A stretch of DNA of 35,977 nt. Source: Nanobdellota archaeon. GTDB lineage: Archaea > Nanobdellota > Nanobdellia > Pacearchaeales > GW2011-AR1. Shown piece after piece: positions 3,550 to 35,552 of this stretch. A model generated the notes under the pieces. That model searched no databases. It saw only the letters and a program-made list of their open reading frames with translations, and was not told the DNA's origin. The first letter of the stretch is position 1. Every line of letters begins with the position of its first letter. The position numbers and the translations under genes are program-made. The stretch covers positions 1 through 35,977 of the forward strand of contig JBBSYJ010000006.1 of assembly GCA_038045305.1 (NCBI GenBank), read 5' to 3'.

Positions 3550-5325
3550 TTACTTCAAAGTAGATTGTCTTGGAGTTGAAAGCTCGTGCGGTCTATCATC
3601 TTTAGAAGTTGAATAAAGAACATTATCATACAAATGATGGCGAGTGGCATCTGCAAGAACATTTGGCAAATATCCTTTTCTTCGACCGTATTCCAAAAAT
3701 CTTTGGGCGGCTAAGTCCCCTTTTGGAAGAGAACCAAAATAAGGAGCTAAGTTTCCTATAATTGTTTTTTCTTGCTCACTATTTGAAATAGTCCCATTTA
3801 AAGAATGAATATAATCTATTTGTGTTAACATCTCGTTAGCTGCACCATTATTAGGGAGATTTCTTAAGTGAGCAAGAGTCATTTCACTTAATTTCTCGTT
3901 GGTAAATACTGGTTGAGTTAAATAATTACGAGCTAAAATATGCCCTTCAGGAATAAGAGCAAAAAGATTAAACTTTCTTCTTAATTCTGCATTCTGGTCT
4001 CTGTATCTTTCTAATTCATCTTGAGGAAGCCAAATTGAAGGATCATCTTTCAAAAGTTTGGCTCTTCTTGGACCCATCCACTCTTTCATAAATCGCAAAA
4101 CAGATCTGTCGAAAAAGCTGTCTTTAATATCACTATTATCACTTTGATAAAAACCAAATTCTTCACAGATATTATAAATTTTTGTTCCAAGATAAGGAAC
4201 TAAAGTAGAAGCCCATGCCATTGTTGGACCTCCAGTAACCCTTCTTAGACGAATGTTGTACTCTAACATTTCCAAATCAGCATCAAGATTCATGGAAGTA
4301 ATGTTTGAAGTTATTCCCCAAGGCAATCCGGTTATTTGCTCTGTTCTAACTTTTAACCCTAATTTCATTAATTTCTCCATACCATCAAAGACCACTTCGT
4401 CGTCCATATGTCTATCAAGAATTTTTTTCCTCATTTCAGGATCTGCTGCTTCTATAGCGTGAGTCGCGCCAGAGGCCCCAGCTTTCTTAATTAAATCCAA
4501 ACGTTTGTCACTTTTTGTCATCTCCCATCTCATTTGATAATGGAAAGGAATTCCAACTTGCTCGGGCCAGGTCTCTGAAAATTGATCTAAAAAGCCACCA
4601 ACTTTATCATCAAATCCAAAAACGTCATCTTGGAAATATATTGTTTCTGCAGGCCATCTTTCATTAATTTCTCTACCCTCCCTTAAGATACTGTCTAAAT
4701 TTCTTATGTTTTGAGGGAATAATCTTTCACCCATGCCTTGTTTTATAAATGCTGCAGCTACTTCTGGAGAGATTTTTAATTCTTTTAAAGTGCTGCTGTT
4801 ATAACAATAAGTGCAACCATAGGGACAACCAGTCATAGTTATCATACTTTTTATTTTGCTTTTTGCATGCTCTGGATAGTCCGAATAAAATGTCTCTCTA
4901 TCAGGAAAAGGAAATGTCTCTAATTCTGTAAGAGGCATGATTCCAGGTTTTGCTTGTCCTCTTAAAATTTTTCTAAATGAATTAAAACCCTCACTCATAA
5001 CAACAAAGTCTGCAGATCCTAAAGATTCTTCTGGAAAATAAGTCGGATGATAACCACCAACGATAGTTTGAATACTTGGAAAATCTTGTTTTAATCTTTT
5101 AAAAGCTTCATGTAACTTCCGATCATTTCCAGTGTAAACTGTAAATCCAACAACATCTGGCTTAAAAGCTTTAACAAACTTAAAAAAAGGTTCGTAATCG
5201 TGATCTTTAACAAGGATATATTCTCTATCCCATCCTTCGTCACGTGCTAAACCCCCAAGATGTAACAAACCTAAAGGTTCAATTGCTGAATAAGCTGCCC
5301 CCAATGCTACTCTTTTTTTTGCCAT
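3550..5325 (-). CDS. B12-binding-domain radical SAM protein
   Basis: The N-terminal region is Rossmann-like and cobalamin-domain-like (DVVGFTVYTGN...TIVGGYHPT). It is followed by the CxxxCxxC cluster motif GCPYGCTYCYN. 591 aa. It looks GC-richer than its neighbours by eye. Confidence 0.8.
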   Translation of the reverse strand: MAKKRVALGAAYSAIEPLGLLHLGGLARDEGWDREYILVKDHDYEPFFKFVKAFKPDVVGFTVYTGNDRKLHEAFKRLKQDFPSIQTIVGGYHPTYFPEESLGSADFVVMSEGFNSFRKILRGQAKPGIMPLTELETFPFPDRETFYSDYPEHAKSKIKSMITMTGCPYGCTYCYNSSTLKELKISPEVAAAFIKQGMGERLFPQNIRNLDSILREGREINERWPAETIYFQDDVFGFDDKVGGFLDQFSETWPEQVGIPFHYQMRWEMTKSDKRLDLIKKAGASGATHAIEAADPEMRKKILDRHMDDEVVFDGMEKLMKLGLKVRTEQITGLPWGITSNITSMNLDADLEMLEYNIRLRRVTGGPTMAWASTLVPYLGTKIYNICEEFGFYQSDNSDIKDSFFDRSVLRFMKEWMGPRRAKLLKDDPSIWLPQDELERYRDQNAELRRKFNLFALIPEGHILARNYLTQPVFTNEKLSEMTLAHLRNLPNNGAANEMLTQIDYIHSLNGTISNSEQEKTIIGNLAPYFGSLPKGDLAAQRFLEYGRRKGYLPNVLADATRHHLYDNVLYSTSKDDRPHELSTPRQSTLK

Positions 5326-12351: not shown

Positions 12352-12469
12352 AAAGTTTAATTTTGAAAGAATATCATGCTGCTGTAGTTTAATTAAAACA
12401 CTTGCTTAGTTTGCAAGAGATGTTGGTGAAAACCCTTCCGGTGGCTCCAATATAACTATTAAAGTAAAA

Positions 12470-15225: not shown

Positions 15226-15618
15226 ATGGAAATGCCTTTATCAGAATTGATTGATAAGTTAAGCATTGTAAAACTTAAAATAGAAAGAGTAGGAGAACCG
15301 CAATTGCAAAAAGAGTATGAAGCATATTTAGAAGCAATTGAAGAGTTTGAAAAGAAAGGTGTAAATGTCAGAAAGGAATGGTTGGAAGAATTGTATAACA
15401 TAAACAAACAGTGTTGGGATTTAGAGTGGGAAGCACGAAAGATAACAGCTTCGGCAAATATATGGGAAGAAGCAGAGAAATTTGGTCTTGCAGAACTTGG
15501 AAGAAGGGCATTAATAATTGGGGATTTAATGAAAAGAAGATCTGATGTTAAAAGTGATATTGCACGCGAAAGTAAAATTGGTTTCGAAGATAAAAAGATA
15601 AATCACGTTGGAAATTAG
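15226..15618 (+). CDS. Small helical protein of unknown function, paralog A
   Basis: 130 aa. Clear paralog of 19807..20175: shared [11 protein letters not shown] / MEIPLSELIDR, NxxxWDL and ES.xGFxDxKxN blocks. The charged heptad-like composition suggests a helical bundle. Confidence 0.7.
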
Positions 15619-17981
15619 ATCTCTTTTGTTTTTATCTCTCCGTGCTCAAAATAAACTACTTCAGGATAAGGTAATGGAAAAATAAATCTCCCTCCTTGAA
15701 TTAAAAATTCCTTTTCACGTTCAATAAATCCGGACTTAAAATGCCATGGCAAAACAAGATAATAGTGTGGATGAGCTTTTCTTGAGTCATCTTCGGAGAT
15801 TATAGGTATGTCGGTTCCAGGGGTTTTTTTACCCCATTTAAATTCATTTCGTTCTGCTGCTGCCTCGCAAATGTTTTTATCAATTCCCAAATATTGGATT
15901 AAAACATTTCCTTTAGTTGAAGCACCGTATAAATGAATTTTCTTATGATTAAGTTTTTCCGTTATCAAGAAATCTTTTAATTTTATCTTTATAACTTCTA
16001 CACGCTTTACAAATTCTGAGTATGGTTTTCTTGTATGAAGCTCGAGATTCCTTTCATATTCTCTTACTTTTTGCACGTCAGAGTTAATATTTCTATTATT
16101 TGAGTCATGACAAATATAAAGACGAAAACTTCCGCCGTTAACGTCGTTAAAAGAAATATCAAAGACCTTTAATCCAACTTTAGAAAGCATCCATTCAATT
16201 TGCTTTAAAGAATAATATTCCAAATGTTCTTGACAAATTGTATCAAAAGAATTTATCTCAAGCATTCGTGGCATGTAACTTTGCTCGCAAATCCAAATTC
16301 CATCCTGGTGCAAAACATCCTTAACTTGTTTAACAAACTCCATCGGCTCGTCAAGATCATAGAACATTGCTATTGAGGTAATAATCTTTGCTTTCTTGTT
16401 TGGGTGAATTGATTTAAATTTATCAGAACTGAAAAAATCAACAATTAATTTTATATTTTCAGGATAGTAATTCTCATATTTCTTGCTTGTAGGGTCTATT
16501 CCAATCTTTTCAAGATTTGGATTTTTATAGGCCTTAAGCAAAACACCGTCGCTGCTTCCAATATCAAGGGCTACGTCGCCTTCATTTATCTCAACAAGTT
16601 TTTCAGTAGTGTTTGCCATTTCAGTCAAATGATTCACCATTGAATTATTAAGACCAGAACGATAACCATAGGTATCTCCATACATTTCTTTTAAGTCAGC
16701 TGTATGTTTTAACTGCACTAAACCACAAGCGGAAGAATCCTCAGAATCATCACACTTTATTAATTCTAAAGGAACTTTCATCGGCTCTTCTTCAATTACA
16801 GATGGAAATCTGCCAGACAAATACTGGTTTCCTAAATTCATAAGAGAAATTAAATTTCTGTTTCCACATATGCGACATTTATCTATAGTTCTTATTTTGA
16901 ACGACTCTTCATTAAACCCTTTTTGTTTTAAATATAACTCTCTTTCAGCCAACATCAAATCATGCTCGGCCATTATTCTTACTAACTCTTTGAACCTAAC
17001 TTTTGCTTCCCAACCCAATTCATGTTTTATCTTTGAAGGATCGGCCAGTAAAATATCAACTTCTGCTGGGCGAAAATAAAGAGGATTTATGTCGATGACA
17101 ACATTTCCTTTTTCATCAAGATATTTTTCATTTATACCAGACATTCCATTTGACTTTATATTCAATCCAAGAACTCGGGCTGTCTCTTCCAAAAATTCCC
17201 TTACAGTATGTTTCTCTCCAGTTCCTACGACATAATCAGACGGACTTTCTTGCTGAAGCATTAACCACATTGCTTCAACATACTCTTTTGCATAACCCCA
17301 ATCTCTTTCAGCATCTAGATTTCCTAAAGATAATTTCTTCTGCAGACCTAATTTAATCCTTGCAAGAGAAATAGTTATTTTTCTAGTCACGAAGGACTCG
17401 CCTCGCCTTTCTGATTCATGGTTAAATAAAATTCCATTGCAAGCAAAAATTCCATATGCCTCCCGCGCGCCAATTGTTTCCCAGTAAGAAAAGACCTTTG
17501 CACGCGCGTATGGACTTCTAGGATAAAAAGGGGTTTTTTCACTTTGAGGAATCTCAACAACTTTACCAAACATTTCTGAAGAACTTGCTTGATAGAATTT
17601 TGCTTTGGGACAGAATTTTCTCATTGCTTCTAAAATTCTCAAAGTTCCTAAAGCAACAATGTTTGAAGTACTTTCGGGAATATCAAAACTAATTCTTACA
17701 TGGCTTTGTGCTCCAAGATTGTAAATTTCATCCGGCTGGACGGTGCGTATAATTTCTTCAATTGATGAAGAATCAGTCAAATCGCCGTAATGCAAATAGA
17801 AATTTTTTTTAGGAGTGTCTGAAGTGTAAGTTCCTTCTTCTTGAATATGAACTATTCTTTCTCTATTAAAAGTACTTGTCCTTCTTATAACGCCGTGAAC
17901 TTCATAGCCCTTAGACAACAAAAAGTCCGCAAGGTAAGAACCATCCTGTCCAGTAATCCCGGTAATTATTGCCCTTTTCAT
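15615..17981 (-). CDS. gmd: Fusion of GDP-mannose 4,6-dehydratase (N-terminal) to an NDP-hexose C-methyltransferase (C-terminal)
   Basis: aa 1-~350 carry [41 protein letters not shown] and [21 protein letters not shown], the GMD hallmarks. From aa ~369 come [25 protein letters not shown] (Zn-ribbon), [10 protein letters not shown] (SAM site) and the C-terminal domain of TylCIII-type C-methyltransferases. It is a single 788-aa ORF. Confidence 0.85.
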
Positions 17982-18066: not shown

Positions 18067-18720
18067 TTAAATTCTCATTTCTAAGGCCTTCATTGCCAAA
18101 TCTGAACCATCAAGTAAATAAGGATCTTTAGCAGCATGTTCTGCCCTAAACGATTCCCAATATTCTTTTGGTGTAATTATGCTTGGATTTTTATGTTCAT
18201 GATTAAGAGCTATTTCAGAACCTTCATTGGCTTCCGCATAAAATACATCTGACGTAGAATAACATCCCCTATTGTTATAACCCTTTCCTCCAGAATTTCT
18301 AACATCAGTGGGACTTATTGAATATATAGCTGCACTTGCATGCATTAAATAAAGAATGTTTTCTTGATTTAAATCCAAACCACTCTCTCCTTTTGTTTTT
18401 TTTATTAAAGATTTAAGGGGATGAAGACCTGCATCCATTCCTCCTCCAATTGGCCATAAAAGGCCCTTACATGGTTCTTCTAATCTTACTACATACAATA
18501 GACCAGGCATCCCTTTTTCATCATTTAATTTTATATAAACATCATGACAGGCCCTAATACATTTTTGCTGAAGTTCTCCAAATACTTGGTCATCAAGAAA
18601 TGTAAATCCTTTTGGCCTTAATACAGATATATCTACTTCACTTCCACTAGGATCCTGAGAATATACTCTAAGAGGAGGCAACCCTAATTTTCTTTGAATT
18701 TCTTGAAATGTATTTACCAT
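18067..18720 (-). CDS. Hypothetical protein, Nudix-fold-like with a degenerate Nudix box
   Basis: LLYVVRLEEPCKGLLWPIGGGMDAGLHPLKSLIKKTKGESGL aligns by eye to the Nudix pattern (LL.v.R...kG.W..PGG...GE....a.REl.EE.Gl). Most catalytic Glu positions are replaced. It looks slightly GC-richer than its neighbours. Confidence 0.4.
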   Translation of the reverse strand: MVNTFQEIQRKLGLPPLRVYSQDPSGSEVDISVLRPKGFTFLDDQVFGELQQKCIRACHDVYIKLNDEKGMPGLLYVVRLEEPCKGLLWPIGGGMDAGLHPLKSLIKKTKGESGLDLNQENILYLMHASAAIYSISPTDVRNSGGKGYNNRGCYSTSDVFYAEANEGSEIALNHEHKNPSIITPKEYWESFRAEHAAKDPYLLDGSDLAMKALEMRI

Positions 18721-18760: not shown

Positions 18761-19735
18761 TCACTTATTAATATCAAATTCAACCATTTCTTTAATAATT
18801 TCAGGGAAAGAATAATGCGGTCTCCAACCAATTGATTTTAATTTAGAATTATTTCCTTTTATTACTCTGTCGTCCGGGCGGAAGAATTCAGGATTTACTT
18901 CTACAAGAAGTTTTCCGTTTTTGTCATAACCTTTTTCATTTACCCCTTCTCCTTTCCAATAGATATTCATTCCCACATATTTAAAGGCCAGATCTACAAA
19001 GTCCCTTACTGTATGATCCTCACCAAGAGAAATTACATAATCAGAAGAACTTGGTTGCTGCATTATTTGATATATAGCGTTTGCGGTGTCTTTCGCATGA
19101 ATCCAGTCTCTTTGTGAGTTTAAATTACCTAAAGATAATTTCTCCAACTTTCCTTTCTTTATCTTTACAACACTATCAGTTATCTTTTTAGTTACAAATG
19201 CATCCCCTCTCTTTGACGACTCTGAATTAAAGATTATGCCATTACAAGAAAAAAGACCTTGCATTTCTCTAGAATATTTTATAAATTGAAACGCAGCCAA
19301 TTTTGCAATAGCATAAGGATTTTTTGGATCAAAGGCCGTATTTTCATCGACAACTCCAGACATGTTTCCGTAAAACTCAGCAGAGCCGGCTTGGAATATT
19401 TTTATCTTTGGATTTAACCTTCTGACAACTTCGCATATTTTTATTACTGGAAGCAAATTTACTTTCATAGTATATTCTGGTTCATTGATTGAAACCCGTG
19501 CATTTGATAAAGCAGCTAAATTATAAATTTCGTCGGGAGAAGAAATAGCAATTGCTTTTTCCAAAGAGTTTAAATCCTCTAAGTCGCCAAACAAAGGCTC
19601 AACTTTATCAACTAATCTCTCTTCTTTGCCTTTTCTTACAAACCCAAAAACATTATAGCCATTTTCAATAAGTATTTCAGATAGATAACTTCCTATTTGT
19701 CCGCTTGCTCCTGTTACTAATGCTGTTTTAGGCAT
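18761..19735 (-). CDS. GDP-mannose 4,6-dehydratase-family SDR paralog (dehydratase or 4-keto reductase)
   Basis: VTGASGQIGSYLSEILIENGYNVFGFVR, GSAEFYG, YAIAK, GIIFNSESSKRGDAFVTKKIT. It follows the GMD lineage, but NHES is changed to NSES. 324 aa. Confidence 0.75.
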   Translation of the reverse strand: MPKTALVTGASGQIGSYLSEILIENGYNVFGFVRKGKEERLVDKVEPLFGDLEDLNSLEKAIAISSPDEIYNLAALSNARVSINEPEYTMKVNLLPVIKICEVVRRLNPKIKIFQAGSAEFYGNMSGVVDENTAFDPKNPYAIAKLAAFQFIKYSREMQGLFSCNGIIFNSESSKRGDAFVTKKITDSVVKIKKGKLEKLSLGNLNSQRDWIHAKDTANAIYQIMQQPSSSDYVISLGEDHTVRDFVDLAFKYVGMNIYWKGEGVNEKGYDKNGKLLVEVNPEFFRPDDRVIKGNNSKLKSIGWRPHYSFPEIIKEMVEFDINK

Positions 19736-19806: not shown

Positions 19807-20175
19807 ATGGAAATACCTTTGTCAGAATTAATAGATAGAATGACTGTTTTAAGAATAAAAGTCCAGAACACTGAAAATCCTAATGTTAAAAAAGAGCTAG
19901 ATCTTGTAGAAGAGGCATTAAGAAATTTTGAAATGAAAAAAGGAAAAATAGACAAGAATCTCATAAATAACTTACAAATAATCAATCAAGAGCTTTGGGA
20001 TTTGGTGGCTGAATTAAGCGATGCCAAAAAAGAAAATAAAAGTTTAGAAGAAATTGGACGAATTTACATAAGGCAGCATATAGCAAACAAAAAAAGAATT
20101 CAAATAAAAAATAAAATTGCGGAAGAAAGCGGCTCAGGATTTAAAGATATTAAAGTCAATTCTAACTTCAATTAA
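19807..20175 (+). CDS. Small helical protein of unknown function, paralog B
   Basis: 122 aa paralog of 15226..15618. The first ~30 nt of the two genes are also about 85% identical at the DNA level. Confidence 0.7.
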   Translation: MEIPLSELIDRMTVLRIKVQNTENPNVKKELDLVEEALRNFEMKKGKIDKNLINNLQIINQELWDLVAELSDAKKENKSLEEIGRIYIRQHIANKKRIQIKNKIAEESGSGFKDIKVNSNFN

Positions 20176-30807: not shown

Positions 30808-30879
30808 TGCGCGGACCGGGATTCGAACCCGGATCTCCTGCTTGGAAGGCAGAAAGTCTAGCCATTGACCTATCCACGC
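30808..30879 (-). tRNA. tRNA-Gly (anticodon UCC)
   Basis: Hand fold of the reverse complement: GCGTGGA-TA-GGTC-AATGGCTA-GACT-T-TCTGC-CTTCCAA-GCAGG-AGAT-CCGGG-TTCGAAT-CCCGG-TCCGCGC-A. It forms a 72-nt cloverleaf with no encoded CCA. Confidence 0.85.
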
Positions 30880-31712
30880 GGCATTAAATTAAGGTAATTT
30901 TGATGTTTTTTTAAATGTTTGGAGTTTGCAGGTTTTATTAAATTGAAGAATTTTTCTATATCTGCTTTTTTATAGATAGAGATTTTGTTCGTCCCTTTTG
31001 ATATATTGAAGCCAGAATAAACTAAAGCATTTTTTACTTCCTCTAGAAATTTAAGATCTCCACTACTTATTTCTATAACAGGGTCTTTTTTCCTTCTTAG
31101 ATAAAAAGTACCATCTGTATCAAATAATCCCTTTAGATAAGAGATTAAAAATCCCTTAGAAATAAAAACTTGCTTAGGAATTTTTAGCTTTCCGAGTTTT
31201 TTTCCTTTTGGTAGTCCATAGATGTTAACCAAAATATCTGAAACTCCTTTTGAATAAACTCTTAATTTGATTCTATTAGGTTCTATAAAAAGAGTAAAAT
31301 TTGTGTTAAACTTCTTTTCAAAGAGTATTTTTAAGTATTCAAAATAATCCTTTTCTTTAGAATTCCCCACAACACATACTTCATATTTAAATTTGGAAAG
31401 ATGACCATCTCCATTTAAGATTCCAAGTATTTCGGCGAGCTTTTTATCCATTTTAGGCGGAAGAATTTCTTTTTGAACAAATCTTGTTTTGGTAATTCTT
31501 TCATACTCTTTTATTCTTACTCCTGCAATATCTTGTATTTTTAAGAAAATATTTTCAGGGATAGAAAATCTTCCAGAAAGATAATGAAGAAACATCGCTC
31601 TGCTTACATTAAAATCAAGATAAATCTTTCTCCATGATTTATTCATTTTAACTTTTAATGCATTGAATAATCTCTTCCTTTCATTATCTTTTAATTTGAT
31701 AAAAATAGGCAT
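30870..31712 (-). CDS. Free-standing double-motif LAGLIDADG protein with an N-terminal HTH-like extension
   Basis: Two dodecapeptide motifs, LAEILGILNGDGHL and LKGLFDTDGTF. About 90 aa of N-terminal extension. The last ~3 codons overlap the 5' end of tRNA-Gly. Confidence 0.8.
   Translation of the reverse strand: MPIFIKLKDNERKRLFNALKVKMNKSWRKIYLDFNVSRAMFLHYLSGRFSIPENIFLKIQDIAGVRIKEYERITKTRFVQKEILPPKMDKKLAEILGILNGDGHLSKFKYEVCVVGNSKEKDYFEYLKILFEKKFNTNFTLFIEPNRIKLRVYSKGVSDILVNIYGLPKGKKLGKLKIPKQVFISKGFLISYLKGLFDTDGTFYLRRKKDPVIEISSGDLKFLEEVKNALVYSGFNISKGTNKISIYKKADIEKFFNLIKPANSKHLKKHQNYLNLMPRG
30906..30915 (-). promoter_or_regulatory. TATA-like box upstream of tRNA-Gly
   Basis: Minus-strand TTTAAAAAAA lies 27-36 nt upstream of the tRNA 5' end, inside the 3' end of the LAGLIDADG ORF. 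Confidence 0.4.
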
Positions 31713-31789
31713 TCAATAAGGTATAACTAAAAGATTATAAATATTACTATCTCGTACTACCCGTTAGACCATATCATAATAAATCCAAA

Positions 31790-31886
31790 CGCCCCCGGCA
31801 GGATTTGAACCTGCGACCTACGCCTTTATCAAACTTGCCTTGATTGTTAGGACGGCGCCACTCTATCCGGGCTGAGCTACAGGGGC
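31790..31886 (-). tRNA. Intron-containing tRNA, probably tRNA-Arg (CCU)
   Basis: Reverse complement: GCCCCTG-TA-GCTC-AGCCCGGATA-GAGT-G-GCGCC-[29 nt]-GGCGT-AGGTC-GCAGG-TTCAAAT-CCTGC-CGGGGGC-G. The 29 nt between the anticodon stem halves are a 7-nt loop plus a 22-nt insert. Canonical 37/38 placement gives the loop GUCCUAA (anticodon CCU). CCA (Trp) is not excluded. Confidence 0.65.
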
Positions 31887-31889
31887 ATA

Positions 31890-31973
31890 TGCGGAAGACA
31901 GGGATCGAACCTGCGCAGGCACTAAGCCACAAGAGCCTTAATCTTGCCTATTTGACCACTCTAGCACTCCCGC
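31890..31973 (-). tRNA. Type II tRNA-Leu with apparent anticodon AAG
   Basis: Reverse complement: GCGGGAG-TG-CTAGAGTGGTCAAATAG-G-CAAGA-TTAAGGC-TCTTG-[15-nt variable arm with GGC/GCC stem]-GCAGG-TTCGATC-CCTGT-CTTCCGC-A. 84 nt, lying 3 nt upstream of the next tRNA. Confidence 0.75.
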
Positions 31974-32723
31974 ATAAATAGAGTAAGGAGATAATTCATT
32001 TTTAAGTATTCTCTTTCTTATTGTAATAGAAGTATTTGGCGGGCAAAAACCAGTTTTTTCCCAGATATTATATTTTGTGAGGTGTTTAGGATTTTTAGAT
32101 CCTATCTCTTGCATCCATTTTTTTACTTGTATGCCTCCAGAAATCTTAACTGTATACGAAGATTTGTTGTTGGTATTAGAGGGTTTTCTTTCTGAGATAA
32201 GACATTTAAAGTTAAGTGACTTTAAAGAAAGATAAATTTCTTCAATTAATTTTTTAGAGGTACAAGATAAATAAATTCTTATTTGAGTATGATATTTATT
32301 GTTTTTGATAGAATAATTTCTTTGACAAGATATACTCCCATCAGTATCAAAAAATCCCCTTAAAAATCGGATAAGATATTTATTATTATTTTTAATCCAT
32401 TTTGGAATTGAAAGTTCTTTTTTAATCCCACTTGGTATTCCTAGAAAATTCAATGGCTTTTCTATATTTACACTTTCTACTGAAAGACCATAAAAATTCA
32501 TTTTTTTATTAAATACCCTCCCAACCTCTCGCGAAAAAATTGGTAGCATTATTTCTCTATTAAATAAAGGAATAATATATGAGTCATAATGTTCTTTATC
32601 CTCCAATAAATTTCCTCTTAGTTGGAATTTAACCCTCTTAGAATTACTCCTATAAGTTAAACCTCCATCTCCAAAACTTAATCCTACTAATTCTGCAGTA
32701 TTTTCATTCCTTATTATTATCAC
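31938..32723 (-). CDS. Free-standing double-motif LAGLIDADG protein
   Basis: Motifs LVGLSFGDGGL and LRGFFDTDGSI. It starts at GTG with an in-frame stop immediately upstream. The last 12 codons (AGVLEWSNRQD) are the translated 5' third of tRNA-Leu, and the stop TAA lies in the anticodon loop. Confidence 0.75.
   Translation of the reverse strand: MIIIRNENTAELVGLSFGDGGLTYRSNSKRVKFQLRGNLLEDKEHYDSYIIPLFNREIMLPIFSREVGRVFNKKMNFYGLSVESVNIEKPLNFLGIPSGIKKELSIPKWIKNNNKYLIRFLRGFFDTDGSISCQRNYSIKNNKYHTQIRIYLSCTSKKLIEEIYLSLKSLNFKCLISERKPSNTNNKSSYTVKISGGIQVKKWMQEIGSKNPKHLTKYNIWEKTGFCPPNTSITIRKRILKNELSPYSIYAGVLEWSNRQD
31998..32005 (-). promoter_or_regulatory. TATA-like box upstream of tRNA-Leu
   Basis: Minus-strand TTAAAAAT lies 25-32 nt upstream of the tRNA 5' end, embedded in the LAGLIDADG coding sequence. 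Confidence 0.4.
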
Positions 32724-32792
32724 CTATTTCAAGAGGTAAGTGAAATATTAAATTGTTTCAATAATTCCAGAATAGTAAACAAAAAACAAAAG

Positions 32793-32800
32793 TTTAAAAA
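32793..32800 (+). promoter_or_regulatory. TATA-like box upstream of 5S rRNA
   Basis: TTTAAAAA lies about 22-30 nt upstream of the inferred 5S 5' end. Confidence 0.4.
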
Positions 32801-32821
32801 CTACTATTTATCTCAAATATT

Positions 32822-32933
<112 letters not shown>

Positions 32934-32934
32934 A

Positions 32935-32944
32935 CTTTTCTTTT
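32935..32944 (+). terminator. Oligo-T tract after 5S rRNA
   Basis: TTTTCTTTTT lies immediately 3' of the 5S closing helix. Archaeal RNAP terminates at such T-runs. Confidence 0.4.
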
Positions 32945-34827: not shown

Positions 34828-35552
34828 ATGGCAAAGGTAATAATTGAATTAAAAGACGTTGCAAAATATTATCAAATGGGAGAGAGTGTTGTAAAAGCAC
34901 TTGACCATATCAATATAAAAATTGAGCAAGGAGATTTTGTTGCGATAATGGGGCCTTCTGGTTCAGGAAAATCAACAAGCATGAATCTTACTGGAAGTTT
35001 GGACTACGCATCTGAAGGAAAAATTTATCTTGATGGAGTAAATATAGAAGATCTTGATGAGTCAGAACTTGCGCAAATCCGGGGTAAGAAAATTGGATTC
35101 ATTTTTCAACAATTTAATTTGATACATAATCTAACAGCAAAAGAAAATGTTATGCTCCCATGCTTTTTCAAAACGTCCATGAAGAAAAACGGGAAGAACG
35201 AGCTGAAGAACTTCTTAAATTAGTTGAACTTGGGGATAGAATGGACCATTATCCTAATCAACTTTCAGGAGGACAACAGCAAAGAGTTGCGATTGCGCGC
35301 TCTTTGGCCAATGACCCGGAAGTAATTCTTGCAGATGAGCCAACTGGAAACCTTGATTCAAGAACTGGAGAAATTGTCCTAGAATTTTTAGGAAAATTAA
35401 ACAAAGAAGGAAAGACAATAATTATGGTTACTCATGATCCTGAAGTTCCAAGAGAATATGCAAGAACAATTTATTCCATAAAAGACGGGAAAATTGAAAA
35501 GGTTGAAAAAAGAATTGGGAAAAATAAATGGAAAAAAGTTTCCCATAAATAA
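34828..35552 (+). pseudogene. ABC transporter ATP-binding protein (MacB/LolD-type), interrupted by a single frameshift near 35158-35162
   Basis: ORF 34828..35223 carries Walker A GPSGSGKST and the Q-loop up to ENVMLP. ORF 35160..35552, in the -1 frame, continues with ...[40 protein letters not shown] and VTHD. Joined at CTCCC-A-TGC, the spacing from P to RA matches intact homologs. Confidence 0.8.

Follow-up and report, generated by a model that had tools for sequence, protein, structure and literature searches.

Locus and domain map of the fusion gene

The window (the whole stretch of DNA that was analysed, 35,977 nucleotides) is filled with GT2, GT4 and GT9 glycosyltransferases, a PMT_2 transferase, a Wzx-like flippase and GtrA, and is a large glycan-assembly locus. 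On its minus strand lies one ORF that joins a GDP-mannose 4,6-dehydratase (GMD) to a sugar C-methyltransferase (MT). The gene, its domains and its neighbours are the following.

15226..15618 (+): small helical DUF6165-like protein, 130 aa; convergent with the fusion gene, with a 4-nt overlap at the 3' end
15615..17981 (-): whole GMD-MT fusion gene, 788 aa, from the ORF list; ATG start, no internal stop, stop codon at 15615-15617
15669..16142 (-): C-terminal (nucleotide-sugar-binding) domain of the MT, aa 614-771; Pfam PF08484 (Methyltransf_14)
16164..16619 (-): SAM-binding Rossmann core, aa 455-606; Pfam PF13489 (Methyltransf_23), residues mapped against TcaB9 and MtmC; holds motif I (D473-G479), D496, Asp542, Cys583 and the E585-H586 dyad
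16680..16877 (-): zinc-binding subdomain of the MT, aa 369-434; Pfam PF08421 (Methyltransf_13)
16887..16931 (-): interdomain linker, aa ~351-365, ~15 residues, located by a pLDDT dip to ~61
16932..17981 (-): GMD domain, aa 1-350; Pfam PF16363, NCBIfam TIGR01472, PDB GMD matches and Foldseek
18067..18720 (-): divergent NUDIX-like protein, 217 aa, accessory gene of the module; directly upstream of the fusion in the same orientation
18761..19735 (-): GMD-like SDR paralogue, 324 aa, candidate C-4 ketoreductase (inferred role)
19807..20175 (+): second DUF6165-like protein, 122 aa, a paralogue of the 130-aa one; divergent from the SDR gene

Pfam, NCBIfam and sequence motifs confirm the single-polypeptide fusion that the first-pass annotation had described, with both halves complete in the 788-aa ORF; the minus strand had not been given there. 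The junction, which it had placed at nt 16880-16920, agrees with our boundary at aa ~350-368 (nt ~16880-16934). With E-values of 1e-45 to 1e-136 and full-length coverage of the profiles, the two domains lie far beyond chance.

In the N-terminal half, the GDP_Man_Dehyd domain (PF16363) spans aa 5-337 (E 2.5e-136), and the gmd equivalog model TIGR01472 (EC 4.2.1.47) scores 500.9 bits (cutoff 415) over profile positions 1-340 of 342. GMDs from the PDB were matched at E 1e-125. The catalytic motifs claimed at first reading, and with them the Rossmann GxxGxxG motif, are intact in the sequence and in an alignment of 47 fused homologues: G8/G11/G14, S133-S134-S135-E136, Y158xxxK162 and N187-H188-E189-S190. 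The catalytic set (G8/G11/G14, S134, E136, Y158, K162, N187-S190) is invariant in these homologues save at residues 134 (37 Ser, 10 Thr) and 190 (Ser in 44). When the AlphaFold model was searched with Foldseek, this half superposed on 5uzh, 6gpj, 1t2a and 2z1m with a target TM of 0.95-0.96 and an rmsd of 1.5-2.1 Å; the structural matches include human, Naegleria and Aquifex enzymes. It is 50-58% identical over the full length to canonical GMDs (E. coli 1DB3, human 1T2A/6GPJ, A. aeolicus 2Z1M) and keeps every catalytic residue. The difference from them, which usually form a dimer or tetramer, is the 430-residue C-terminal methyltransferase.

Both halves of the AlphaFold monomer are confident (mean pLDDT 91.2). 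The pTM is 0.57 with a linker pLDDT of ~61; the mutual orientation of the two domains carries no confidence and no interface is reported. Among the 47 fused homologues the linker varies from ~0 to 60 residues and its sequence is not conserved.

The fusion, the NUDIX-like gene and the GMD-like SDR gene form a probable operon. The 217-aa NUDIX-like protein has no Pfam match of its own. In the syntenic locus L005 its homologue (E 4e-11) is the weak-NUDIX gene. The fusion shares its locus with a NUDIX-like gene in L005, L087, L088 and L089; in L087 and L089 the two are direct neighbours. In P0066 a NUDIX domain is fused to an MT and a GMD-like SDR. The 130-aa DUF6165-like protein likewise has no Pfam match by itself. 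Its homologue in P0128 (E 8e-12) is a DUF6165 extension, fused there to an MT of the same type as ours (DC-type, below). Its 122-aa paralogue shares 34% identity with it (E 7e-21) and matches the P0128 C-terminus at E 1e-8. In L005 the DUF6165-like pair likewise brackets the module, and in L087 it is found upstream of the fusion. We rejected these proteins as general MT partners, since they are confined to the clade of the window, one Synechococcus locus and one fusion.

The 324-aa SDR is 40% identical to the GMD domain of the fusion, lacks a loop of ~17 residues and scores 304 bits with the gmd model, under the cutoff of 415. An Rmd-type reductase was considered and rejected, as GMDs match the protein much better (E 4e-81) than the solved Rmd does (E 1e-24). 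In P0049, P0062 and P0124 an SDR is fused C-terminally to the MT, and these SDR halves are 43-46% identical to the 324-aa protein. The 324-aa protein retains the dehydratase Glu in its S-A-E motif, and a role as a second dehydratase in place of a reductase is therefore conceivable.

Recurrence and origin of the fusion

The fusion is not unique to the window; public databases already contain further examples of this recurrent architecture. Both domains are carried by 83 of the 120 best database clusters, and fused orthologues are 41-73% identical over ~98% of the length. In public databases the fused homologues are annotated only as 'GDP-mannose 4,6-dehydratase', which overlooks half of the protein. 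The taxonomy of the fused forms was read from a few source names (Patescibacteria, WWE3, Nanoarchaeota) and from sample names; the homologue P0016, for example, lies on a contig of assembly GCA_018825365.1 and is annotated by NCBI as 'Patescibacteria group bacterium'. The host of the window's fusion was taken to be, probably, a groundwater bacterium of the Patescibacteria (CPR).

We considered that an adjacent gmd and C-methyltransferase gene had been merged by a missed stop or a frameshift near nt 16880-16930. Such genes are adjacent and nearly overlapping in some genomes (e.g. L020 and L021), the junction DNA contains short A-runs, and an ABC ATPase in the same window (34828-35552) is apparently split by a frameshift. 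Against a merger, the identical 788-aa ORF occurs in independently assembled contigs, those of 'Hain_H32_02um' in ENA and, separately, those that Logan assembled from ERR3858126. Dozens of orthologues (41-73% identity), which come from different samples, are also single ORFs despite differing linker length and sequence. An artefact therefore has next to no probability left and is effectively refuted. The GMD-MT fusion is a real, recurrent and so far undescribed variant of known enzymes.

Judged from the sequences, the fusion arose at least three times: as GMD→MT with a DC-type MT, as in the window; as GMD→MT with a classical HY-type MT (8 proteins); and as MT→GMD with a true GMD. The last was called with the NCBIfam gmd model (cutoff 415) in P0014 (474.7 bits) and P0026 (466.9 bits). 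The same check led us to reject the idea that all 'MT-SDR' proteins are MT→GMD fusions, as the rest carry sub-threshold GMD-like SDRs. A neighbour-joining tree of the MT domains placed the fused forms in at least 10 scattered clades with no bootstrap support, and the independence of the events rests instead on the three architectures.

The methyltransferase half and its subfamily

The first-pass annotation described a complete C-methyltransferase with a SAM-binding core, and this was borne out by the motif D473-I-G-S-S-D-G479 and by three Pfam domains above their gathering scores: PF08421 (49.3 bits, cutoff 31.3, E 5.5e-13), PF13489 (39.9 bits, cutoff 27) and PF08484 (155.6 bits, cutoff 23.5, E 1.3e-45). 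Among PDB entries the MT half matches MtmC best (4rv9; E 6e-53, MtmC residues 8-416), and TcaB9 (3ndi) was matched at E 1e-32 over residues 14-411. The CxxC zinc ribbon noted at aa 369 is also present: C369-x2-C372 pairs with C410-x8-C419, and all four Cys are invariant in the 47 fused homologues. TcaB9 and MtmC have their own Cys pairs at the aligned positions, but the second pair here has 6 extra residues between its members.

The dTDP-hexose C-3 methyltransferases TcaB9, KijD1, MtmC and TylCIII (3NDI, 5T64, 4RV9) share with the MT of the window the zinc ribbon with its four Cys, the SAM Rossmann core, the C-terminal domain, the Tyr438/Tyr440 region and the Glu-His dyad, and the model superposes on MtmC, TcaB9 and KijD1 with a target TM of 0.92-0.94 (Foldseek). 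However, the identity is 21-29%, the second Cys pair is CxxC there and C-x8-C here, and their context is that of dTDP-sugars, whereas our MT is fused and genomically linked to a GDP-sugar enzyme.

In the MT alignment, E585 (TcaB9 E224) is kept in 224 of 230 sequences, H586 (TcaB9 H225) in all 230, and Y438 and Y440, in the region of TcaB9 Tyr76, in 225-226 of 230. The catalytic roles assumed for the Glu-His and tyrosine residues follow the PDB titles of TcaB9 mutant entries. At the positions of TcaB9 His181 and Tyr222, which MtmC also has, the window's MT carries Asp542 and Cys583, and 207 of 228 homologues have this Asp/Cys combination. His/Tyr was found only in the two reference sequences and 8 fused proteins of the alignment. 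His181 and Tyr222 are reportedly among the residues targeted in the TcaB9 work of Holden's group, and their replacement means that the chemistry or the regiochemistry of the MT may differ. The earlier label 'TylCIII-type' thus stands for membership in the TylCIII/TcaB9/MtmC superfamily with its three domains, but the enzyme is not a typical member; by its sequence it belongs to a large, distinct and uncharacterised DC-type subfamily. We rejected Asp/Cys versus His/Tyr as a simple rule for GDP versus dTDP specificity, as the 8 His/Tyr-type MTs are fused to true GMDs as well.

Standalone DC-type MTs are very widespread and occur in at least 597 species genomes; Nitrobacter and Methanoregula have them, and cultivable carriers include Nitrobacter sp., Mesorhizobium, Paraburkholderia and Synechococcus CS-1325. 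In 28 of 80 species genomes examined, a GMD at least 47% identical lies within 8 kb of one. At least 26 of the 80 have a true GMD there, made up of 8 of 10 borderline cases that scored above the gmd cutoff and 18 stronger ones counted on identity; by a rough estimate, the chance expectation is below 1%. In some genomes the GMD directly adjoins the MT, in either order. Sub-threshold GMD-like SDRs abut standalone MTs in ~35 of 80 genomes, as estimated from the neighbourhood listing.

Because of the fusions and of the true GMDs near standalone MTs, GDP-4-keto-6-deoxymannose, the GMD product, is the likely substrate of the MT. This earlier suggestion has gained strong comparative support, as the pair has been fused independently in both orders and is often adjacent when separate. 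Fusion and gene neighbourhood together point to a GDP-linked rather than a dTDP-linked substrate.

Proposed route to a C-methylated deoxysugar

We consider the protein to be, probably, a bifunctional sugar-nucleotide enzyme in which the GMD acts before the C-methyltransferase, with the 4-keto group reduced later and the sugar passed into a surface glycan. In the initial step, the GMD domain, which family membership identifies with high confidence as orthodox and NADP-dependent, would convert GDP-mannose to GDP-4-keto-6-deoxy-D-mannose. No GDP-mannose pyrophosphorylase is encoded in the window, so GDP-mannose must come from elsewhere. The C-terminal domain would then act as an NDP-hexose C-methyltransferase that contains zinc and depends on SAM. 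If it works as TcaB9 does, its conserved Glu585-His586 dyad would take the proton alpha to the 4-keto group, and the enolate would attack the methyl of SAM to give GDP-4-keto-6-deoxy-C-methyl-hexose. The methylation site is most likely C-3, with C-5 as the alternative.

The 4-keto group would finally be reduced, most plausibly by the 324-aa GMD-like SDR of the same probable operon, and the resulting GDP-6-deoxy-C-methyl-hexose would be used by the surrounding glycosyltransferases and the flippase. This step is backed by the sub-threshold GMD-like SDRs that abut or fuse to the MT. In other loci a DegT aminotransferase takes the place of the SDR after the MT, and its step also needs a 4-keto product. 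The fusion itself probably arose by the joining of adjacent genes, and it ensures that two consecutive enzymes are co-expressed 1:1 and stay close together. Substrate channelling, which the first-pass annotation took to be implied by the fusion, would be a further possibility. Among the points against the bifunctional scheme is that the AlphaFold model has no confident interdomain interface.

The same pathway could run in a non-consecutive way, with the MT acting on a later intermediate (after 3,5-epimerisation, 3-deoxygenation or amination) or at C-5 instead of C-3. The substrate of TcaB9 is a 3-amino sugar, and NovU and some other relatives in the MT family are C-5 methyltransferases. The Asp542/Cys583 replacements speak for this possibility, as do related loci in which DegT aminotransferases occur or, in L087, an RmlC-like epimerase domain is joined to an MT. 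However, the minimal recurrent module is GMD, MT and SDR with no other tailoring enzyme, neither DegT nor a cupin epimerase was found within the window, and domain order equals pathway order in two of the three fusion types (GMD→MT and MT→reductase-like SDR), and we regard a non-consecutive order or C-5 methylation as unlikely. Even less probable is a fusion that completes the pathway alone, with an MT that is also a 4-ketoreductase, as is reported for MtmC, its closest solved relative, or a GMD that is a bifunctional dehydratase/4-reductase, as some GMDs are described to be, and with the 324-aa SDR otherwise employed. In its favour, no PDB entry matches the MT half better than MtmC, and PMC3539893 mentions a bifunctional GMD as well as 4-ketoreductase activity in the S. 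argillaceus enzyme. Against it, the identity to MtmC is just ~29%. In the genome of P0016 no SDR adjoins the fusion, which fits this arrangement and means that the reductase assignment is not universal. Yet in most loci GMD-like SDRs or aminotransferases follow or fuse to the MT, and they would be redundant if C-4 were already reduced.

Returning to the consecutive GMD and MT steps, C-methyl branched deoxysugars are known mainly from the dTDP pathways of actinomycete antibiotics. To our knowledge, a GDP-based route has so far just been proposed in silico, for the virenose of Coxiella. In C. burnetii, the proposed route employs the GMD CBU_0689 and the TylCIII-like C-methyltransferase CBU_0691, in a pathway that is in silico only (PMC3539893); in a 2026 preprint GDP-4-keto-6-deoxy-D-mannose is merely 'thought to' be an intermediate of virenose synthesis. 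Both routes would lead from GDP-mannose to GDP-4-keto-6-deoxymannose, then to C-methylation by a TylCIII-family enzyme and to reduction at C-4. The Coxiella enzymes are encoded by separate genes, whereas here they form one polypeptide, and the window's MT comes from a different (DC-type) subfamily.

The repeated independent fusion of a true GMD and this MT is Rosetta-stone evidence that a GDP route exists and is widespread, and the fusion protein offers a single-protein reagent for testing it. It also gives a very large unannotated MT subfamily a testable substrate, and it suggests that CPR bacteria and DPANN archaea have C-methylated 6-deoxyhexoses in their surface glycans, which are poorly known. 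More tentatively, and at somewhat less than even chances, DC-type MTs, fused or standalone, may be a GDP-sugar-specific clade that makes a C-branched 6-deoxyhexose (evalose- or virenose-like, or a 4-amino derivative), the fused form handing the labile 4-keto intermediate directly to the MT. If true, such sugars would occur in the surface glycans of hundreds of bacterial and archaeal species, CPR and DPANN included.

Known fused sugar-nucleotide tailoring enzymes include E. coli ArnA and the plant RHM UDP-rhamnose synthases, which resemble the protein described here in that a single chain combines steps of one nucleotide-sugar pathway that are consecutive or otherwise related. We found no description of the GMD dehydratase and C-methyltransferase pair in the searchable literature. 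Other fusions were seen among the homologues from uncultured organisms: GMD with a DegT aminotransferase, radical-SAM with GMD, MT with DegT and GT2 with MT.

A recurrent dehydratase-methyltransferase fusion

The fusion joins a GDP-mannose 4,6-dehydratase (GMD) to a sugar C-methyltransferase (MT) in one polypeptide, laid out as follows.

15615..17981, minus strand: fusion gene, 2,367 nt, 788 aa, ATG start (ORF list)
aa 5-337: GDP_Man_Dehyd (Pfam, E 2.5e-136)
aa 369-434: Methyltransf_13 zinc domain (Pfam)
aa 455-606: class-I SAM methyltransferase core (Pfam)
aa 614-771: Methyltransf_14, C-methyltransferase C-terminal domain (Pfam, E 1.3e-45)

The first-pass annotation had read this sequence accurately: the extent, the 788-aa length and the domains stood, and only the minus strand had gone unstated. 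The GMD, claimed to be complete, carries S133-S134-S135-E136, Y158xxxK162 and N187-H188-E189-S190, and scores 500.9 bits with the NCBIfam GMD equivalog model (curated cutoff 415; model positions 1-340 of 342). The claimed C369xxC372 and SAM-binding core were found as well, the latter with the SAM motif DIGSSDG at 473-479, and the junction, placed at nt 16880-16920, falls at aa ~350-368, or nt ~16880-16934. By these motif and profile matches, both domains were shown to be complete, with the catalytic residues of their families.

A search for the same architecture, proposed in the first-pass annotation, covered 5.8 billion proteins, and the fusion recurs. When each half was searched separately by BLAST, both domains were present in 83 of the 120 best clusters. 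Full-length fused relatives from NCBI, JGI, ENA and Logan are 41-73% identical over ~98% of the query. The same 788-aa protein is encoded, without a single difference, on independently assembled contigs (ENA 'Hain_H32_02um...' and the Logan assembly of ERR3858126); the sample of the identical contig was 0.2-um groundwater. A frameshift or missed stop peculiar to this assembly is excluded by these identical independent ORFs and by the 83 fused clusters, and also because, across 47 aligned GMD→MT proteins (N- to C-terminal order), both domains are conserved but the linker is not, its length ranging from ~0 to 60 residues. The fusion is thus shown to be real and recurrent.

An AlphaFold2 model built with the 47-sequence alignment had a mean pLDDT of 91.2 and a pTM of 0.57, with the linker pLDDT dropping to ~61. 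This means two well-folded predicted domains, with no confident prediction of their mutual orientation. In Foldseek comparisons with the PDB, the N-terminal half matched GMD crystal structures at a target TM of 0.95-0.96 (rmsd 1.5-2.1 A) and the C-terminal half matched MtmC, TcaB9 and KijD1 (target TM 0.92-0.94), and in the model both domains are shown to adopt the expected folds. No PDB structure found by Foldseek spans both halves (query TM <=0.50). The substrate channelling that the first-pass annotation read from the fusion stays a hypothesis.

The methyltransferase subfamily and its coupling to GMD

A C-terminal half from a non-sugar methyltransferase family would have refuted the first-pass annotation. 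The METHYLTRANSFERASE half instead aligned over its full length with the sugar enzymes MtmC (4rv9, E 6e-53), TcaB9 (3ndi, E 1e-32) and KijD1 (5t64). We mapped onto it the mechanistic mutation targets of TcaB9 named in PDB entry titles (Y76, H181, Y222, E224 and H225). The Glu-His pair is kept as E585-H586, and all 230 sequences have H586. Y438 and Y440 preserve the tyrosines, and the four zinc cysteines are invariant. In contrast, TcaB9 His181/Tyr222 are replaced by Asp542/Cys583. Because 207 of the 228 aligned homologues, fused and standalone alike, carry this DC signature, we assign the MT half by sequence to a separate subfamily of the TylCIII/TcaB9 superfamily. The His/Tyr form occurs in that alignment only in two reference enzymes and one group of eight fused proteins. 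The DC-type subfamily comprises 2,126 clusters at 50% identity (E <=1e-30), and species-representative genomes carry it at 597 or more loci.

By sequence comparison, fusions of the GMD and MT domains arose independently on at least three occasions.

Types of fusion, with domains in N- to C-terminal order
GMD→MT, DC-type MT: roughly 40 proteins, window protein included
GMD→MT, His/Tyr-type MT: P0035, P0037, P0038, P0041, P0044, P0046, P0080, P0081
MT→GMD, true GMD: P0014 (474.7 bits), P0026 (466.9 bits); gmd cutoff 415

We then looked at the gene neighbourhoods of the best 80 species genomes with a standalone DC-type MT, out of the at least 597 loci. Among them are Methanoregula, Methanoperedens, Nitrobacter, Mesorhizobium, Paraburkholderia, Prochlorococcus, Synechococcus, Lachnospiraceae, Verrucomicrobia, Patescibacteria and Saccharibacteria. 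In 28 of the 80, the MT has a GMD within 8 kb that shares at least 47% identity with the window GMD. Eight of the ten weakest of these matches passed the gmd cutoff, so a true GMD is near the MT in at least 26 genomes, taking the 18 stronger, unscanned matches as passing. The chance expectation would be below 1%, a rough guess rather than a computed figure, which assumes a usually single-copy gene and a genome of several megabases. In several genomes the two genes stand side by side, as GMD→MT at L020, L021 and L037 and as MT→GMD at L022, L032, L045 and L079. Adjacency in both orders shows an obvious path, by which neighbouring genes would have fused.

Taken together, independent fusions and gene neighbourhood show that the two predicted activities are linked, and they support GDP-4-keto-6-deoxymannose as the probable substrate of the DC-type subfamily. 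A similar GMD-then-MT logic, with a TylCIII-type C-methyltransferase, was proposed in silico for Coxiella burnetii virenose, with separate genes there versus one polypeptide here (PMC3539893). According to a 2026 preprint, GDP-4-keto-6-deoxy-D-mannose is only 'thought to' be an intermediate of virenose synthesis. Each half of the fusion belongs to a well-known family, and fused proteins in databases are unnamed or plain 'GDP-mannose 4,6-dehydratase'. The literature searched, with most subscription journals outside its coverage, yielded no description of the fused enzyme, no characterised GDP-sugar C-methyltransferase and no biochemical characterisation of any DC-type member. The fusion is neither unique nor categorically new; it is a new variant, undescribed in the literature searched, in which two known enzyme types are combined. 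It is of value chiefly for comparison: it makes a strong Rosetta-stone case for a GDP-linked pathway to branched sugars and gives a very large uncharacterised methyltransferase subfamily a testable substrate.

Several related arrangements were seen. GCA_053534515.1 carries two GMD-MT fusion genes (L088:3708-6020 and L088:7001-9421) ~1 kb apart with one gene between them. In addition to its own GMD-MT fusion, GCA_053534215.1 encodes a 576-aa protein with C-methyltransferase domains and an RmlC-like dTDP_sugar_isom domain (L087:1-1629). Metagenomic proteins include GMD+DegT fusions (P0060, P0069, P0078, P0116, P0117) as well as MT+DegT (P0151), GT2+MT (P0152), MT+GT15 (P0131) and MT with a second MT (P0129), which suggests a general tendency of these organisms to fuse nucleotide-sugar tailoring steps. 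The locus that encodes P0026 (L089:1-654 and neighbours) also has genes for a flippase, an STT3/AglB-type oligosaccharyltransferase and an initiating transferase of the GT4 family (Glycos_transf_4), an archaeal-type N-glycosylation context.

Neighbouring genes and the proposed pathway

Two genes lie upstream of the fusion on the same strand, with gaps of 86 and 40 nt.

18067..18720, minus strand: 217-aa divergent NUDIX-like protein, Nudix box partly degenerate (homology, E 4e-11)
18761..19735, minus strand: 324-aa GMD paralogue (SDR), 40% identical to the fusion GMD domain

The 217-aa protein had no Pfam match; a homologue (E 4e-11) is the product of a weak-NUDIX gene that sits in the syntenic locus encoding P0002, a fusion orthologue with 73% identity. 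A NUDIX-like gene was present in the fusion locus of all relatives inspected (L005, L087, L088, L089), and in L087 and L089 it directly neighbours the fusion. P0066 from a Nanoarchaeota genome combines NUDIX, MT and GMD-like parts in one 1,102-aa protein. The gene is reminiscent of E. coli gmm/wcaH, which adjoins gmd.

The 324-aa SDR is without a loop of ~17 residues, falls under the gmd cutoff (304 bits) and retains the S-x-E, Y and K residues. Solved Rmd reductases are far more distant from it than GMDs are. An estimated 35 or so of the 80 genomes, as listed, have such a sub-cutoff SDR directly adjoining a standalone MT, and SDRs of this kind also stand C-terminal to the MT in many fused proteins. 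In P0049, P0062 and P0124 the SDR half shares 43-46% identity with the 324-aa SDR versus 33-37% with the window GMD. We regard the 324-aa SDR as a candidate C-4 ketoreductase, with its retained residues and its closeness to GMDs counting against that role. Other loci have a DegT-type aminotransferase after the MT in place of the SDR. Since a reductase-like SDR and DegT both require a 4-keto substrate, this fits a C-methyltransferase that modifies what the GMD makes.

In the proposed pathway, the GMD domain would dehydrate GDP-mannose to GDP-4-keto-6-deoxymannose. The E585-H586 dyad would make an enolate beside the 4-keto group, which SAM would then methylate. By analogy with all solved relatives, the methyl group would probably go to C-3, with C-5 a chemical possibility. 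C-4 would then be reduced by the 324-aa SDR, and the final sugar would feed the surrounding glycosyltransferases.

Two small helical ORFs, paralogues with 34% identity, bracket the probable SDR/NUDIX-like/fusion operon.

15226-15618, plus strand: 130-aa ORF, homologous to the P0128 DUF6165 extension (E 8e-12)
19807-20175, plus strand: 122-aa ORF, homologous to the same extension (E 1e-8)

Singly, neither had a Pfam match; P0128 is a DC-type C-methyltransferase with the DUF6165 extension fused to it. Loci L005 and L087 have the pair too, and Synechococcus (L067) has one copy close to its MT. These DUF6165-like proteins are possibly an accessory of the methyltransferase.

The rest of the window

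The remainder of the window (G+C ~31%) is, as annotated by homology, a glycan-assembly locus. It encodes GT2, GT4 and GT9 glycosyltransferases, a PMT_2-type transferase, a Wzx-type flippase, GtrA, asparagine synthase, SAM methyltransferases and a B12-binding radical-SAM enzyme; a FemAB-like gene and SecDF are also present. The B12-binding radical-SAM enzyme (3550-5325, minus strand) recurs in glycan loci with the fusion (L003:4348-5952, L087:3295-4686, L087:11107-12474). Such a gene lies directly upstream of the fusion encoding P0016, a fused homologue listed at NCBI under 'Patescibacteria group bacterium' and carried on a 460-kb contig of GCA_018825365.1, and P0091 is a radical-SAM+GMD fusion. 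The enzyme may add a further methyl group by radical chemistry or modify the sugar in some other way. The low G+C, the groundwater sample, the FemAB-like gene, SecDF and the label of P0016 make a CPR bacterium a likely host.

A single ABC-transporter ATPase domain runs across two overlapping ORFs that differ in frame (34828-35223 and 35160-35552, both plus strand; ABC_tran profile positions 1-80 and 76-136), which points to a frameshift, whether from a pseudogene or from a sequencing error. In the region 30808-32935, two LAGLIDADG-domain ORFs alternate with tRNA genes; the list below opens with a tRNA match outside that region.

12378-12446: tRNA match (Rfam; not called by ARAGORN)
30808-30879: tRNA-Gly
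30870-31712, minus strand: LAGLIDADG-domain ORF
31790-31886: tRNA match (Rfam; not called by ARAGORN)
31889-31974: tRNA-Leu
31938-32723, minus strand: LAGLIDADG-domain ORF
32821-32935: lone 5S rRNA
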